Below are positions 1 through 8,656 of a stretch of DNA of 8,656 bases, piece after piece. The notes below the pieces were generated by a model, which was given only the letters and a program-made list of their open reading frames with translations, was not told where the DNA came from and ran no database searches. This DNA comes from a virus. Taxonomy: Duplodnaviria; Heunggongvirae; Uroviricota; Caudoviricetes. The stretch lies in IMG/VR virus record IMGVR_UViG_2675903495_000009; one strand, written 5' to 3'. Position numbers and translations under genes: made by a program. Each line of letters begins with the position of its first letter. Positions within the stretch are counted from its first letter, which is position 1.

Positions 1-22
1 ATATCTCCCCGGCAGCCTTCAG

Positions 23-93
23 GGAAAAATATCATCAGATGGCTGCTTAAAAAAAGAACAAATGGTAGTGTCCGCTATTGCCAGTACACCTCA
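23..93. repeat. Left arm of a perfect 71-bp inverted repeat (partner 8586..8656)
   Basis: Plus 23..93 is identical to the reverse complement of 8586..8656 by direct comparison. The match runs to the right window edge, so the repeat may be longer. Overlaps the 3' end of the CDS 47..235. Confidence 0.8.
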
Positions 94-235
94 GGGTATA
101 AGGGGTTATGGCCACCGGACTACCAAACGGCTGCCAGCCCTCTTTCAGTTTATGTGTCAGCTTTTCCGCAAGATCTGACGGCGGCGCCGCCCTGACAACA
201 TCATAGTGTTTAAATGCCATGGTTCTTTCCACCAT
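47..235 (-). CDS. Small prophage late-region protein, DUF1737-like (recalled family)
   Basis: ORF track 62 aa. The second ATG at 220 (MAFKHYDVVRAAPPSDLAEKLTHKLKEGWQPFGSPV...) has a GGTGGA Shine-Dalgarno 7 nt upstream and is the likelier start. Resembles small proteins found just upstream of holin genes in lambdoid prophages. The last ~15 codons lie inside the inverted repeat, so the C-terminus may be a recombination product. Confidence 0.5.
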   Translation of the reverse strand: MVERTMAFKHYDVVRAAPPSDLAEKLTHKLKEGWQPFGSPVAITPYTLRCTGNSGHYHLFFF

Positions 236-480: not shown

Positions 481-816
481 ATGAAGTGGATTGTGATTGA
501 TACAGTTATCCAGCCATCATGCGGAATATCTTTTTCAGTCATATGGAGTAAAATAAAATTAATAATCTGGTATCAATCGGATGCTTTCTTACCTCCTGAA
601 AGTATATTTACACTGACTCACACAGGCATCATGCTCAATAACAAAGTGCTACCTGTAACCATTTACAACGTAGTACCATTCAATAAAACATTCTGGAATT
701 CAATCAAAAATAGCCAGGAATGCCCTACAAATACAGATAACGTATTGAATGAATGCTTTAATAACCGTTGCACTCTGCAAATATGTCCTTATGGACTAAA
801 ACAACAAAGTCCATAA
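481..816 (+). CDS. Hypothetical protein (111 aa, 5 Cys) in AT-rich cargo island, opposite strand to the phage genes
   Basis: ATG preceded by AAGGAA 6 nt upstream. A 111-codon open frame in roughly 33% GC DNA is unlikely by chance. 6 of 13 Ile codons are ATA. No recognisable domain. Confidence 0.35.
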
Positions 817-1676: not shown

Positions 1677-1753
1677 TGGCGCGCTGTACTGGATTCGAAC
1701 CAGTGACCGATTGCTTAGAAGGCAATTGCTCTGTCCGGCTGAGCTAACAACGC
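1677..1753 (-). tRNA. argO: tRNA-Arg (anticodon UCU)
   Basis: Cloverleaf read by hand: acceptor GCGTTGT/ACAGCGC, anticodon loop CUUCUAA, T-loop GGTTCGAATCC, 3' discriminator G + CCA encoded. Symbol given by positional analogy to the ileZ-argN-argO trio of Stx phages; uncertain. Confidence 0.85.
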
Positions 1754-1766
1754 ATGATGCAGATAA

Positions 1767-1843
1767 TGGACCGCCATCGGGGACTTGAACCCCGCGCAGC
1801 CAGCTTCGAAGGCTGGCGCTCTTTCCTGATGAGCTAATGGCGG
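1767..1843 (-). tRNA. argN: tRNA-Arg (anticodon UCG)
   Basis: Acceptor CCGCCAT/ATGGCGG, anticodon stem-loop CCAGC-CUUCGAA-GCUGG, T-arm CGGGG-TTCAAGT-CCCCG, CCA encoded. The 5' C is unusual, so the 5' end may be off by 1 nt. Symbol by positional analogy; uncertain. Confidence 0.8.
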
Positions 1844-1850
1844 TATGTGA

Positions 1851-1926
1851 TGGTGGCCCTTGCTGGATTTGAACCAGCGACCTGGCGATTATGAGTCGCT
1901 CGCTCTCACCACTGAGCTAAAGGGCC
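1851..1926 (-). tRNA. ileZ: tRNA with CAU anticodon, near-identical to E. coli tRNA-Ile2 (lysidine, reads AUA)
   Basis: GGCCCTTTAGCTCAGTGGTGAGAGCGAGCGACTCATAATCGCCAGGTCGCTGGTTCAAATCCAGCAAGGGCCACCA differs at only a few positions from ileX as I recall it. Ile2 versus Met cannot be settled from sequence alone. Confidence 0.85.
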
Positions 1927-3170: not shown

Positions 3171-3198
3171 AAATAAAAAAGCCTTCACTGCGGAAGGC
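3171..3198 (-). terminator. Rho-independent terminator candidate overlapping the stop of CDS 3185..3382
   Basis: Minus-strand gccttc-cgcagt-gaaggc hairpin (plus 3181..3198) followed by UUUUUUAUUU (plus 3171..3180). Confidence 0.5.
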
Positions 3199-3382
3199 GT
3201 CTGTAACAACCGAACTGATAGTCTGCCAGACCCGCCATAACCAGCTGGGTCAGTATTAACTGGCAGCGTTCGCGTGAAAGGTAAGTATTCTGCGCTATCT
3301 CCCCGACTGTCGCCGGTTCGGTAACGCTTAATTCATTAAACACCACTCTGGCGGTTTCTGTCATATCCTGCTGTTTTAGCAT
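3185..3382 (-). CDS. Small hypothetical protein (65 aa), possible winged-helix/HTH DNA-binding protein; first gene after PR'/tR'
   Basis: MLKQQDMTETARVVFNELSVTEPATVGEIAQNTYLSRERCQLILTQLVMAGL... with a ggaaaaggaaaag Shine-Dalgarno region upstream. The helix-turn-helix-like segment TVGEIAQNTYLSRERCQLIL is judged by eye. Confidence 0.5.
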   Translation of the reverse strand: MLKQQDMTETARVVFNELSVTEPATVGEIAQNTYLSRERCQLILTQLVMAGLADYQFGCYRRLPQ

Positions 3383-3499
3383 GTCTTTTCCTTTTCCGGT
3401 TAACGTGACACACCAATAACTCTTGTCGAAAAAGCCAGCAAGCTGAAAGACAGGTATTCACCGCCACCAGCGCGTTTACTGTACTGACGCGATTTCAGT

Positions 3500-3526
3500 C
3501 ATAAAAAACCCGCTCGGCGGCGGGTT
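3500..3526 (-). terminator. tR'-like intrinsic terminator of the short PR' transcript
   Basis: Minus-strand acccgc-cgccga-gcgggu hairpin followed by UUUUUUAU, about 40-65 nt downstream of the PR' -10. Confidence 0.65.
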
Positions 3527-3559: not shown

Positions 3560-3601
3560 CCATCGTTATGACGAATTTACCACAGATTCCGGAAAAATCA
3601 A
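3560..3601 (-). promoter_or_regulatory. Lambda-type late promoter PR' with qut and pause-inducing element
   Basis: On the minus strand, immediately after the Q2 stop: TTGATT (-35, plus 3596..3601), 16-nt spacer, TAAATT (-10, plus 3574..3579), then cgtcat-AACGATGGG. This matches the lambda PR' arrangement TAAATT-N6-AACGATGGG as I recall it. Confidence 0.7.
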
Positions 3602-3606
3602 CCTTG

Positions 3607-4354
3607 TTACCTAGTTACCTTTTTTAACTGCCGCTCAGCCCATGCTTCTTCAATATCAAACCGGGTCACCAGCGCATCATAAAATTTCTTAACTGTTTTT
3701 TCCCATGACGCGCGTGTTATCTGGTTTGTCACCTCGCATATAGCATTAAATGCCTCCGTTGATGGTAGTCTTTCATAGCCACGACCACCANNNNNNNNNN
3801 NNNNNNNNNNNNNNNNNNNNNNNNNNNNNNNNNNNNNNNNNNNNNNNNNNNNNNNNNNNNNNNNNNNNNNNNNNNNNNNNNNNNNNNNNNNNNNNNNNNN
3901 NNNNNNNNNNNNNNNNNNNNNNNNNNNNNNNNNNNNNNNNNNNNNNNNNNNNNNNNNNNNNNNNNNNNNNNNNNNNNNNNNNNNNNNNNNNNNNNNNNNN
4001 NNNNNNNNNNNNNNNNNNNNNNNNNNNNNNNNNNNNNNNNNNNNNNNNNNNNNNNNNNNNNNNNNNNNNNNCTACCGGTTTTATTTCTGCCGGAAGTTTT
4101 CTCAACGCCGCCACACGATCGCACCGACTGAGTGCATAATCTGCCAGTAATTCTGTTGCCCGCGCCCTGTCATTCATACTGATGCCCATTTTCCCCAGGA
4201 ACGCAGAAAACCCCATCTCAGCCCGATTCTGTGTCATGCCCTGCGCGGCCATCACATCAGTGATACTCAGCGCATCTTTTGACGTTGAGGCCGATGCATC
4301 GGTCAGGCAAGGGGATTTTGGGGAGTAGTATTTCGGTAAATCTTCCAGTTTCAT
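3607..4354 (-). CDS. Q: Late antiterminator Q, lambda-Q family (copy 2, adjacent to PR')
   Basis: N-terminus MKLEDLPKYYSPKSP...TDVMAAQGMTQNRAEMG resembles lambda Q (MRLESVAKFHSPKSP...TDVMAAMGMAQSQAGFG). C-terminal frame ...ASWEKTVKKFYDALVTRFDIEEAWAERQLKKVTR* resembles the lambda Q C-terminus. The interior 3791..4071 is masked. The span is 748 nt, not a multiple of 3, and about 38 codons longer than copy 1, so integrity is unverified. Confidence 0.7.
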
Positions 4355-4430
4355 TTTTTGACCTGCTCTTCATGCATTATGGGGTAAATCTTCACCCCCA
4401 GACGTCCACCAGATACTGGCTGACCACGAA
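4072..4430. repeat. Direct repeat, copy 2 of the rusA-3'/Q-5' module (partner 5153..5511, offset 1081 bp, about 92% identity by eye)
   Basis: Base-by-base comparison shows scattered substitutions only, so these are diverged copies rather than an assembly duplicate. Confidence 0.85.
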
Positions 4431-4574
4431 NNNNNNNNNNNNNNNNNNNNNNNNNNNNNNNNNNNNNNNNNNNNNNNNNNNNNNNNNNNNNNNNNNNNNN
4501 NNNNNNNNNNNNNNNNNNNNNNNNNNNNNNNNNNNCACCGTCGGCGGATAAGGTAAAATAAACTCATGGCGCAT
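4351..4574 (-). pseudogene. rusA-like remnant (second copy): N-terminal and C-terminal segments but too short and out of frame
   Basis: N-terminus MRHEFILPYPPTV (RusA-like LPxPP start) and C-terminus ...RGQPVSGGRLGVKIYPIMHEEQVKK* (cf copy 1 ...RAQPVSGGRLGVKIYPIMLEGQVKK*). Only 224 nt span start to stop, including the 105-nt mask, versus about 360 nt for full RusA. Its TGA overlaps the Q2 ATG (ATGA). Depends on the mask length being true. Confidence 0.4.
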
Positions 4575-4816
4575 CAGCGCAGCACCTCCTGCACCAGTTT
4601 TTCAAACTTTCCGACTCTGGTTTCCAGCTCTGCCACACAGTCCACCAGCTCATCTACTGCTTTCTGTGCGCGATGCTTCGCCTGCATCAGTTCCCGAAGC
4701 GCGGGTACCATATCTTTACGGATAGCGTCTTTTGTTATGCCCGTTTTTTCGAGTTGTTCAGCATGACGCAGCATTTCCTGCGCGTGTTTACGCAATTGTT
4801 CAGGGGTAAAAGTCAT
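4574..4816 (-). CDS. Small hypothetical protein (80 aa from ATG at 4816), predicted helical and charged
   Basis: MTFTPEQLRKHAQEMLRHAEQLEKTG...AELETRVGKFEKLVQEVLR. The N-terminus resembles that of CDS 7868..8212. Its start overlaps the 3' end of Q1 by 17 nt. Confidence 0.45.
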   Translation of the reverse strand: MTFTPEQLRKHAQEMLRHAEQLEKTGITKDAIRKDMVPALRELMQAKHRAQKAVDELVDCVAELETRVGKFEKLVQEVLR

Positions 4817-5435
4817 TGTCTGGTTGTTCAAAAGAAACGCTCCATCTTACTGCTGTCAGTTCGTTTATTACTGTATCTGCGCGGATTGCCGGGCNNNNNN
4901 NNNNNNNNNNNNNNNNNNNNNNNNNNNNNNNNNNNNNNNNNNNNNNNNNNNNNNNNNNNNNNNNNNNNNNNNNNNNNNNNNNNNNNNNNNNNNNNNNNNN
5001 NNNNNNNNNNNNNNNNNNNNNNNNNNNNNNNNNNNNNNNNNNNNNNNNNNNNNNNNNNNNNNNNNNNNNNNNNNNNNNNNNNNNNNNNNNNNNNNNNNNN
5101 NNNNNNNNNNNNNNNNNNNNNNNNNNNNNNNNNNNNNNNNNNNNNNNNNNNNCTGCCGGTTTTATTTCTGCCGGGAGTTTTCTTAACGCCGCCACGCGAT
5201 CACACCGACTGAGTGCATATTCTGTCAGCAATTCTGTTGCCCGCTCTCTGTCATTCATACTAATGCCCATTTTCCCAAGGAACGCAGAAACCCCCATCTC
5301 AGCCCGATTCTGTGTCATGCCCTGCGCGGCCATCACATCAGTGATACTCAGCGCATCTTTCGACGTTGAGGCCGATGCATCAGTCAGGCCGGGGGATTTT
5401 GGGGAGTAGTATTTCGGTAAATCTTCCAGTTTCAT
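4800..5435 (-). CDS. Q: Late antiterminator Q, lambda-Q family (copy 1) with C-terminal extension
   Basis: 211 aa, in frame across the 258-nt mask. N-terminus about 95% identical to copy 2. The C-terminus ...IRADTVINELTAVRWSVSFEQPDNDFYP* runs about 16 aa past the position where lambda Q ends (...NILNAVTR*). Its ATG overlaps the rusA stop (ATGA). No PR'-like promoter follows it. Confidence 0.75.
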   Translation of the reverse strand: MKLEDLPKYYSPKSPGLTDASASTSKDALSITDVMAAQGMTQNRAEMGVSAFLGKMGISMNDRERATELLTEYALSRCDRVAALRKLPAEIKPAXXXXXXXXXXXXXXXXXXXXXXXXXXXXXXXXXXXXXXXXXXXXXXXXXXXXXXXXXXXXXXXXXXXXXXXXXXXXXXXXXXXXXXXPAIRADTVINELTAVRWSVSFEQPDNDFYP

Positions 5436-5511
5436 TTTTTGACCTGCCCTTCAAGCATTATGGGATAAATCTTCACCCCCAGACGTCCACCAGATACTGG
5501 CTGAGCACGAA
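5153..5511. repeat. Direct repeat, copy 1 of the rusA-3'/Q-5' module (partner 4072..4430)
   Basis: See partner entry. Confidence 0.85.
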
Positions 5512-5713
5512 CGATATTGATTTCATCAAACTGCTCATCGTCCATTAGCAACCCCGCATGCGTCAGCGCATCCAGCGGCGCTTTCAGAATATTGTCCAGG
5601 TCACGGCGGCGCTTATCCGGTGGTTCTGCAATAATTTTTATTGCCAACCTTCCGGACAGGCTTAATTTCAGCCGCTGCTGGCGAACAATAAGCGCCACTG
5701 CCCGGCGATAACG
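5432..5713 (-). CDS. rusA: Holliday-junction resolvase RusA (visible C-terminal 93 aa; N-terminus inside mask 5714..5939)
   Basis: ...EPPDKRRRDLDNILKAPLDALTHAGLLMDDEQFDEINIVRAQPVSGGRLGVKIYPIMLEGQVKK* matches the RusA core (DLP12 RusA ...[31 protein letters not shown]... as recalled). Stop is translationally coupled to Q1. Confidence 0.85.
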   Translation of the reverse strand, partial: RYRRAVALIVRQQRLKLSLSGRLAIKIIAEPPDKRRRDLDNILKAPLDALTHAGLLMDDEQFDEINIVRAQPVSGGRLGVKIYPIMLEGQVKK

Positions 5714-5939
5714 NNNNNNNNNNNNNNNNNNNNNNNNNNNNNNNNNNNNNNNNNNNNNNNNNNNNNNNNNNNNNNNNNNNNNNNNNNNNNNNNNNNNNNN
5801 NNNNNNNNNNNNNNNNNNNNNNNNNNNNNNNNNNNNNNNNNNNNNNNNNNNNNNNNNNNNNNNNNNNNNNNNNNNNNNNNNNNNNNNNNNNNNNNNNNNN
5901 NNNNNNNNNNNNNNNNNNNNNNNNNNNNNNNNNNNNNNN

Positions 5940-6609: not shown

Positions 6610-6906
6610 TGCANNNNNNNNNNNNNNNNNNNNNNNNNNNNNNNNNNNNNNNNNNNNNNNNNNNNNNNNNNNNNNNNNNNNNNNNNNNNNNNNNNNNNNN
6701 NNNNNNNNNNNNNNNNNNNNNNNNNNNNNNNNNNNNNNNNNNNNNNNNNNNNNNNNNNNNNNNNNNNNNNNNNNNNNNNNNNNNNNNNNNNNNNNNNNNN
6801 NNNNNNNNNNNNNNNNNNNNNNNNNNNNNNNNNNACCTCCAGATCCGTTGCTGGAATGTGCGGGACGGACGCGTTGGCCGTTCGGAGTAAGGGAGCCTGA
6901 CGGAGA

Positions 6907-7191: not shown

Positions 7192-7516
7192 CAGAATCCT
7201 TCCAGATAAATAGCACTCCCCTGTTCGGGGTCCATCCCTCTTCTCCCTGCGCGCTACTTAAGTATTNNNNNNNNNNNNNNNNNNNNNNNNNNNNNNNNNN
7301 NNNNNNNNNNNNNNNNNNNNNNNNNNNNNNNNNNNNNNNNNNNNNNNNNNNNNNNNNNNNNNNNNNNNNNNNNNNNNNNNNNNNNNNNNNNNNNNNNNNN
7401 NNNNNNNNNNNNNNNNNNNNNNNNNNNNNNNNNNNNNNNNNNNNNNNNNNNNNNNNNNNNNNNNNNNNNNNNNNNNNNNNNNNNNNNNNNNNNNNNNNNN
7501 NNNNNNNNNNNNNNNN

Positions 7517-7579
7517 CACTATGACGGTTAAACAGATGACGATCAGGGCGATTAACATCGCCTTTTGCTGCTTCATAGC
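7517..7579 (-). CDS. hokD: Hok-family type I toxin, HokD/RelF-like (visible N-terminal 20 codons; rest inside mask 7267..7516)
   Basis: MKQQKAMLIALIVICLTVIV matches the HokD/RelF N-terminus as I recall it (MKQQKAMLIALIVICLTVIVTALVTRKDLCEV...). AAGGAG Shine-Dalgarno 9 nt upstream. Expected length about 50 aa, so the stop should fall near 7430 inside the mask. Confidence 0.8.
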
Positions 7580-7867
7580 CTGCTTCTCCTTGCCTTTCGG
7601 CACGTAAGAGGCTAACCTAGATTTGCCGTTCATAGATTGAGCCTCAGATTAATGTTAAGCGTCTTGCCGGACGCGTAATGTTAACTGGGGCTTTTCTCTA
7701 TCTGCCTTTTGGTGTTCATGCCTGAGACAGATAGCCTCAAGCACCCGCTGCAATTCTACTTAACTCTCCTTTTCCCGCAAACCGTTTTTATCCCCAGCGG
7801 CAAATCGAATACACCACCAGCGCCACCGCCATCGCAATTCCTACCGTTGTTAATGCTTCAGGCCAGG

Positions 7868-8386: not shown

Positions 8387-8617
8387 TTAACCCGCAGTGC
8401 TTTCAACTGATGAGGGGAACAAAATCTTTTCATCAAACCCTGCATTCATATCATGAACAGCAACACACCAATCCATCGACGAACGATTATCAAGAGCCTC
8501 CATGATTTCATCCATGCGGCGTAGGTCATACAGGTAAATGCTTTTATCGCCAATGGTGTAAAAGCCAATTTTTTTCGGTGATGGATGAGGTGTACTGGCA
8601 ATAGCGGACACTACCAT
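8387..8617 (-). CDS. Hypothetical protein (76 aa); first 10 codons lie in the right arm of the inverted repeat
   Basis: MVVSAIASTPHPSPKKIGFYTIGDKSIYLYDLRRMDEIMEALDNRSSMDWCVAVHDMNAGFDEKILFPSSVESTAG. No clear Shine-Dalgarno. An in-frame TAA four codons upstream rules out extension beyond the window. Confidence 0.35.
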   Translation of the reverse strand: MVVSAIASTPHPSPKKIGFYTIGDKSIYLYDLRRMDEIMEALDNRSSMDWCVAVHDMNAGFDEKILFPSSVESTAG

Positions 8618-8656
8618 TTGTTCTTTTTTTAAGCAGCCATCTGATGATATTTTTCC
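8586..8656. repeat. Right arm of the perfect 71-bp inverted repeat (partner 23..93)
   Basis: See partner entry; the match reaches the window edge. Confidence 0.8.

Follow-up and report, generated by a model that had tools for sequence, protein, structure and literature searches.

Our analysis indicates that the series of two rusA-Q modules in the window, by which we mean the whole 8,656-nt stretch of DNA under study (IMG/VR virus record IMGVR_UViG_2675903495_000009), probably consists of two Shigella prophage remnants that have been misjoined, most likely by scaffolding or contig ordering. All genes of the region lie on the minus strand and all of its parts are known: they are ordinary lambdoid late-regulation modules, comprising a RusA Holliday-junction resolvase, a Q-lambda-family antiterminator, PR' with its pause site and tR', and the two prophage remnants, referred to here as X and Y, are catalogued in Shigella. 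The juxtaposition of X and Y is probably not biological. The original prediction, in which two rusA-Q modules from two lambdoid phages stand in tandem as the scar of a recombination, holds to the extent that diverged modules do occur in series and do come from two prophages, but the recombination scar itself is doubtful.

Comparison with reference loci resolves the window into a mosaic. Positions 8656-5153 and 3790-2817 are 100% identical to remnant X (e.g., CP151357 and CP032523), the IS600 insertion junction included. Positions 4894-4536 and 4430-4072 are 100% identical to remnant Y (e.g., CP104423; intact form NZ_CP065613), and positions 1753-1 are Y-type except for a single 47-nt deletion. 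Exact-protein look-ups in finished Shigella-type chromosomes gave the gene order IS600-76aa-55aa-114aa-hok-DUF968-RusA(126)-Q(273)-hyp65-methylase-tRNAs for locus X and IS21-helicase remnant-hyp85-RusA(124)-Q(284)-...-IraM-DUF1737'-IS600 for locus Y, with tRNA ahead of IraM, and in finished Shigella chromosomes the two are separate loci. The longest recorded contig is 5,039,992 nt for the X Q protein and for the Y Q protein alike, and X and Y are therefore probably located on one chromosome. Among RefSeq-annotated relatives, one (L001) carries helicase-hyp85-RusA(124 aa)-Q(273 aa) and another (L003) carries DUF968-RusA(126)-Q(273)-hyp65-methylase-three tRNAs. Whereas remnant X has a single rusA-Q, the window has a Y block inside Q, and its far right end is Y-type. 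It likewise departs from S. sonnei-type Y, in which an 8-nt deletion at the stop codon yields a 284-aa Q and the methylase module is missing, by having the X-type Q stop and the methylase. The switch from X to Y in tRNA-Arg (1685-1753) was considered as a possible chimera and set aside, since positions 3790-1175 form a contiguous natural locus in another genome (L061) at 100% identity, and this switch is probably natural. Within the rusA-Q region, every X/Y transition lies under an N run. Two inverted IS600 copies contribute their right ends to the two ends of the window (1-93 and 8586-8656), a hallmark of a short-read contig or scaffold.

The direct repeat in this region is real and far beyond chance. 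Direct alignment of its two copies found 338 of 359 positions identical (94.2%) without a gap, close to the 92% first reported.

4072..4430, no strand assigned: repeat copy A, the Y allele, placed by alignment
5153..5511, no strand assigned: repeat copy B, the X allele, placed by alignment

Read on the minus strand, each copy takes in the final 76 nt of rusA, the ATGA at which the rusA stop and the Q start overlap, and the first 94 codons of Q, in agreement with the content assigned to it originally. The repeat ends at 359 nt because N-runs bound both copies; the homology itself continues beyond this length, with window positions 5156-5713 being 93% identical to Y-type rusA-Q across 558 nt.

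The N-runs are central to any reading of these genes. Their lengths were compared with the distance between both flanking 18-mers of each run in every fetched locus that holds both:

2557-2816: 260 nt in the window, reference spacing 251 nt (20 loci)
3791-4071: 281 nt in the window, reference spacing 355 nt (12 loci)
4431-4535: 105 nt in the window, reference spacing 256 nt (11 loci)
5714-5939: 226 nt in the window, reference spacing 245 nt (15 loci)
6614-6834: 221 nt in the window, reference spacing 242 nt (14 loci)
7267-7516: 250 nt in the window, reference spacing 237-238 nt (14 loci)

All six comparable N-runs disagree with a reference spacing that is constant (237-238 in one run) across 11-20 loci each. 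The sequence flanking the N-runs matches X at 100% identity across some 3.8 kb, and the 7 kb of visible sequence holds one indel only. The N-run lengths are not true distances and carry no frame information, and arguments about frame or length across them are therefore void. That the runs are length-true masks over natural allelic indels was rejected because the references, among them a divergent E. coli prophage, all agree on the spacing. Collapsed repeats likewise fail as a full explanation: the N-run in Q already begins 120 nt ahead of the stretch that X and Y have in common, and where ordinary drafts break within Q, they do so at codon 128-134 rather than 94. A simple scaffold-gap model leaves unexplained why the N begin at one and the same homologous base in both Q copies and why five of the hidden stretches are 238-256 nt long, and an ordinary gap estimate would not turn the 256 nt between two Y blocks into 105 N. 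If the runs were instead deliberate masks over a contiguous contig, this would imply an X-to-Y junction that is supported by reads and real. We regard it as very improbable that the N lengths are true, in which case rusA2 would have lost about 151 nt, Q2 would carry a frameshifting deletion of about 74 nt, and the upstream Q would work in trans on PR'. Although four of the runs are within 10% of the reference spacing, so that their lengths are perhaps roughly meaningful, and the two large deviations (105 vs 256 and 281 vs 355) fall exactly in the Y module, such a reading needs hidden indels of +9, -19, -21 and +12 nt in about 3.8 kb that is otherwise 100% identical.

With the reference distances in place, the downstream module takes on a coherent form. 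Its features are as follows:

4828..4894, minus strand: 3' end (remnant) of a replicative DNA helicase gene, Y-type, 100% identical to L004 5938-6004
4574..4831, minus strand: hyp85, an 85-aa conserved hypothetical protein of the Y module, the exact protein being indexed in 2758 blocks of the collection
4351..4574, minus strand: rusA2, Y-type, with its start and last 76 nt visible and its middle under N-run 4431-4535
3607..4354, minus strand: Q2, with the N-terminal 94 codons Y-type, the C-terminal 61 codons and stop X-type, and the middle under N-run 3791-4071
3562..3601, minus strand: PR'-like promoter plus sigma-dependent pause element, TTGATT-16-TGGTAAATT-6-AACGAT
3498..3526, minus strand: tR'-like intrinsic terminator with a 7-pair stem, 5 GC pairs and a T-run, about 75 nt past the promoter

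The counterpart of the helicase remnant in L001 is annotated in RefSeq as 'replicative DNA helicase'. In the contigs examined, RusA (124 aa) and Q invariably come after hyp85, for which no Pfam family reaches the cut-off. Both flanks of rusA2 are 100% identical to L004, the reference gene measures 375 nt (124 aa), and the reference RusA proteins match the RusA profile PF05866 with E values of 1.5e-16 and 1.8e-16. The rusA2 flanks are 256 nt apart in 11 of 11 loci, against 105 N in the window; once the 256 nt are restored, the start lies 297 nt, or 99 codons, from the first visible codon past the run, in frame. Restoring 355 nt in Q2 similarly gives 822 nt that encode an uninterrupted, in-frame protein of 273 aa. 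The CxxC region of Q2 lies under N-run 3791-4071, its last 61 visible residues are identical to the reference, and neither a stop nor a frameshift is visible in the unmasked parts of rusA2 and Q2. A 273-aa protein that joins the Y-type N-terminus of Q2 to its C-terminus (P0003) occurs in more than 1000 contigs, and exact look-up placed another 273-aa hybrid Q with a Y N-terminus and an X C-terminus (P0004) in 6 contigs. The earlier view that the downstream rusA is a short, out-of-frame remnant and that the ends of Q2 lie in different frames depended solely on the 105-N and 281-N lengths, and both genes come into frame at 256 and 355 nt. The alternative offered alongside it, that these frame shifts are artefacts of the masks, is thus upheld for the downstream module only, by way of the references and not of unmasked sequence. 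Judged by sequence, hyp85-rusA2-Q2-PR'-tR' would be the only complete unit in the window.

The pattern TTGATT-16-TAAATT-6-AACGAT occurs once (3601-3562, minus strand; 0.00 matches expected), directly past the Q2 stop, and a terminator comes next, at 3526-3507. A strict sigma-70 scan does not list this promoter, which has 8/12 hexamer matches and was found with the lambda-type motif; we take the site to be a lambda-type PR'/SDPE from what is established for lambda PR'. Nothing comparable follows Q1, so that the placement of PR' beside Q2 alone was correctly called: promoter, AACGAT pause element and terminator come after Q2 only. By analogy with Q-lambda, the 273-aa Q2 would be expected to load at PR' and to take RNA polymerase through tR' into the methylase, tRNA and late region. 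The leader of lambda is the 194-nt 6S RNA, whereas the distance to the terminator here is about 75 nt.

The assignment of Q to the Q-lambda family is supported by several comparisons. The reference X and Y Q proteins match PF03589 with E values of 1.6e-53 and 7e-55 and contain two repeats, and the visible 94-aa N-terminus by itself matches with an E value of 7.9e-16. Full length in the family is 273 aa, and among solved proteins Q-lambda comes closest (7UBM, E 3.5e-41). Likeness to Q-lambda (PDB 7UBM, 7UBN, 4MO1) extends over the PF03589 match, the alignable ends of the protein and the TAAATT -10 element with AACGAT 6 nt on and a terminator beyond. Residues 1-113 and 182-273 of Q align with residues 1-113 and 116-207 of Q-lambda. 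The two differ in size, Q-lambda having 207 aa and the window-type Q 273 aa with a 68-residue insertion (aa 114-181) that holds extra CxxC pairs and falls at the start of the Q-lambda zinc-ribbon arm. In Q-lambda, residues 1-44 form the exit-channel torus, residues 61-113 plus 153-207 the HTH body and residues 114-152 the zinc-ribbon arm, with residues 116-207 comprising the zinc ribbon and the HTH, which bind QBE (PMC9388147).

The upstream module is of X type and incomplete in the visible sequence:

5432..5713, minus strand: rusA1, X-type, with the C-terminal 93 codons visible and the start under N-run 5714-5939
5153..5435, minus strand: Q1 5' fragment, X-type, codons 1-94 plus 1 nt followed by an N-run, 100% identical to L024

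The visible part of rusA1 is 100% identical to a reference locus (L024 12933-13214). The reference RusA protein has 126 aa and matches PF05866 with an E value of 1.5e-16, and the open reading frame 5432-5698 shows the acidic motifs RDLDN and DDEQ. Of the two Antiterm repeats of PF03589, the Q1 fragment matches the first alone (aa 24-82), and the next unmasked block after it is the helicase remnant, not the remainder of Q. The 211-aa Q1 reported originally is an open reading frame (4800-5435) read through 258 N. Its visible tail, PAIRADTVINELTAVRWSVSFEQPDNDFYP, comes from window positions 4800-4894, a stretch in which the helicase remnant ends and hyp85 begins and which is here read in a wrong frame; the last 30 residues derive from the 3' end of the remnant. 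In Y references, a TGA stands in the frame of this tail, starting 2 nt inside the N-run and one codon before the first fully visible codon. An intact Q of 211 aa with about 16 extra residues is thus refuted, as the full length in the family is 273 aa and the supposed extension is out-of-frame helicase remnant. The upstream Q is, as its sequence reads, neither intact nor extended; it would be at most a 5' fragment that abuts the remnant of a helicase gene. The visible Q1 lacks the second Antiterm repeat (aa 178-265), which aligns with Q-lambda 116-207. It would not be a working Q, since no more than about 86 hidden codons follow codon 94 before the helicase remnant is reached. Both points weigh further against true N lengths. 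By analogy with Q-lambda, a Q1 fragment that ends soon after residue 94 would be unable to bind QBE.

The junction at which X gives way to Y lies under a further N-run:

4895..5152, no strand assigned: N-run over the X-to-Y junction, both flanking 18-mers within 1.5 kb of each other in no reference locus

A gapped pattern across this run gave no match in viral contigs. No 12-mer is common to the X sequence that follows Q1N and the Y sequence that precedes the helicase remnant, which also argues against a k-mer path switch as the cause of the join between Q1 and the helicase; in the absence of X/Y homology at this point, a real junction would have to be illegitimate. Each of the 25 finished chromosomes above 1 Mb that were examined for the exact IS600/76-aa junction of the window carries just one DUF968-RusA(126)-Q(273)-methylase. 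Neither DUF968 nor Q stands upstream of hyp85 in any of the 10 distinct contexts shown (28 contigs). None of 5,426 complete E. coli genomes covers the tandem, the best places there being single modules, and it occurs in none of 50,697 phage records. S. sonnei-type references have IS21 inserted 58 nt upstream of the window's helicase-remnant end. The same position, 58 nt beyond the last unmasked helicase base, is occupied by IS21 in 8 of 8 references that share the window's IS600/DUF1737' junction, which makes a short, contiguous read-through into Q1 unexpected. The right end of IS21 reads ...GGGGGCCAGTCTA. X rusA1-Q1N was found upstream in two (L044 and L047) of 26 IMG/VR contigs with the helicase/hyp85 anchor, and in both an explicit N scaffold join separates the blocks, IS21 end sequence lying on the helicase-remnant side of the N. 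The complementary join, from Y Q2 to X PR', occurs in L045 at an N on the Q stop codon. In these collections a genuine tandem thus has no contiguous independent junction, its order appearing only across N joins in the two IMG/VR contigs. The possibility raised at the outset of a duplication made in assembly is accordingly the more likely outcome, with single modules in the finished chromosomes and the series in drafts only across scaffold joins.

We propose that the X left arm (DUF968-rusA1-Q 5') and the Y left arm (helicase remnant-hyp85-rusA2-Q 5') stand here in series before one shared right arm. The Q 3' half and PR' region are nearly identical in X and Y, with complete identity over 343 nt in the Q 3' half, so that a single repeat would connect to both left arms; most likely, scaffolding or the ordering of contigs then put both in one line. 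Serial placement by a scaffolder also fits the two grossly wrong gap sizes.

The principal alternative, which we consider unlikely, is a real, strain-specific tandem in which an illegitimate deletion or fusion joined X, broken in Q1, to the 3' end of the Y helicase, leaving rusA2 and Q2 intact. A truncated, non-functional Q1 would then stand upstream of an intact hyp85-rusA2-Q2-PR', and the N-run lengths would be no more reliable. The unmasked blocks do follow one another in the order first described, Shigella remnants are heavily rearranged by IS elements (IS600, IS21 and IS1 lie around both loci), the private 47-nt deletion marks a distinct lineage, and the contiguity of 3790-1175 in L061 at 100% lends a natural setting to that part of the window. 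The junction, however, is contiguous nowhere in the finished chromosomes examined, the E. coli genomes, the phage records or the 26 IMG/VR contigs; without X/Y homology it requires an extra illegitimate event besides a crossover inside Q; and the relatives with the IS600/DUF1737' junction have IS21 at that very spot. There are two readings of Q1: it forms the 5' part of the normal Q of the X locus, with the 3' half of that gene in the shared repeat, or, if the join is real, it is a dead 5' fragment. In the latter case, comparison with Q-lambda suggests that Q1 would consist of the N-terminal torus segment and half of the body, without the DNA-binding part. That the fusion is real and that such a truncated Q1, transcribed early, modulates or competes with intact Q2 at RNA polymerase is conceivable by the same analogy, though exceedingly improbable. 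A fusion of this kind, if real, would add another strain-specific scar to a decayed prophage and would involve no new mechanism. Under the misjoining that we favor, the window illustrates how easily paralogous prophage modules in IS-rich genomes, such as those of Shigella, are strung together by scaffolding, and it cautions that reading frames and gene lengths should not be inferred across N runs.

The 47-nt deletion at 1175/1178 is private to the window sequence and absent from finished genomes, and a 41-mer spanning it has no match in genome, metagenome or viral contig collections; the exact protein of the 355-aa methylase open reading frame with X residues is not on record. The region as a whole resembles Stx-converting and mEp460-like lambdoid phages, which have the same order rusA-Q-PR'-methylase-ileZ/argN/argO-stx, and its rusA-Q has 88-96% nucleotide identity to mEp460_ev081, vB_EcoS-640R1 and Stx2_EH1910. 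In one relative (L002), stx2g directly follows the same tRNA trio, whereas the window is without stx and has DUF3927, IraM and a DUF1737 gene truncated by IS600 after its tRNAs.

The window looks, from its sequence, like a whole contig or scaffold of a Shigella-type genome that stops in insertion-sequence copies, since right ends of IS600 lie at both of its edges. Sequence and junction comparisons, together with annotation, place the following features in the window.

1-93 and 8586-8656, right ends of two oppositely oriented IS600 copies (sequence comparison)
47-235, minus strand, DUF1737 gene cut short by the IS600 insertion (junction comparison)
481-816, plus strand, IraM
1677-1926, minus strand, tRNA trio: Arg-tct, Arg-tcg and a CAT-anticodon tRNA (Ile by RefSeq annotation)
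3185-3382, minus strand, 65-aa ORF directly 3' of the terminator tR', with a weak winged-helix (TrmB) match
7267-7633, hok/sok-type type I toxin-antitoxin locus (PF01848 in references), mostly under an N-run

Together the two IS600 ends make a perfect inverted repeat of 71 nt, and their sequence agrees with IS600 in NZ_CP065613 at 100% identity. The junction of IS600 with the truncated DUF1737 gene recurs unchanged in 8 finished Shigella-type chromosomes. In IMG/VR, public drafts from related strains (scaffolds L044, L045, L047 and L061) string together, by single N characters, contigs from three paralogous late regions: those of X and Y, two Shigella prophage remnants, and a third one. This concatenation results in pseudo-tandem rusA-Q arrays.

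Within the window, the change from X-type to Y-type donor falls inside tRNA-Arg, in a 69-nt identical stretch (1685-1753). The same join is present, contiguous and at 100% identity, in L061; it is part of the third of these late regions and probably arose naturally. The tRNA trio itself matches the ileZ/argN/argO-type cluster located before stx in Stx phages; in the comparison locus L002 it is followed by stx2g, whereas the window carries DUF3927 and IraM there, without toxin genes. The small DUF3927 ORF contains a deletion, with 47 nt missing at 1175-1178 relative to all Y-type references and CACT microhomology on its flanks. The 40-mers of this deletion were the sole ones in the window missing from the whole set of loci compared at that stage, and a 41-mer spanning its junction had no match in three public collections.

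The reference Q antiterminators P0001 and P0002, members of the Q-lambda family, carry a 68-residue insertion (aa 114-181) with extra CxxC pairs, which sits where Q-lambda has its zinc-ribbon arm and suggests that the zinc ribbon is doubled in these proteins; the DnaJ_CXXCXGXG match to the insertion is weak. In the window, the equivalent of aa 114-181 is covered by the N-runs at 3791-4071 and 4895-5152. The Y copy of Q in S. sonnei reaches 284 aa because 8 nt are deleted at the stop codon. In many prophages the 65-aa ORF is conserved, with Q on one side of it and the methylase on the other.
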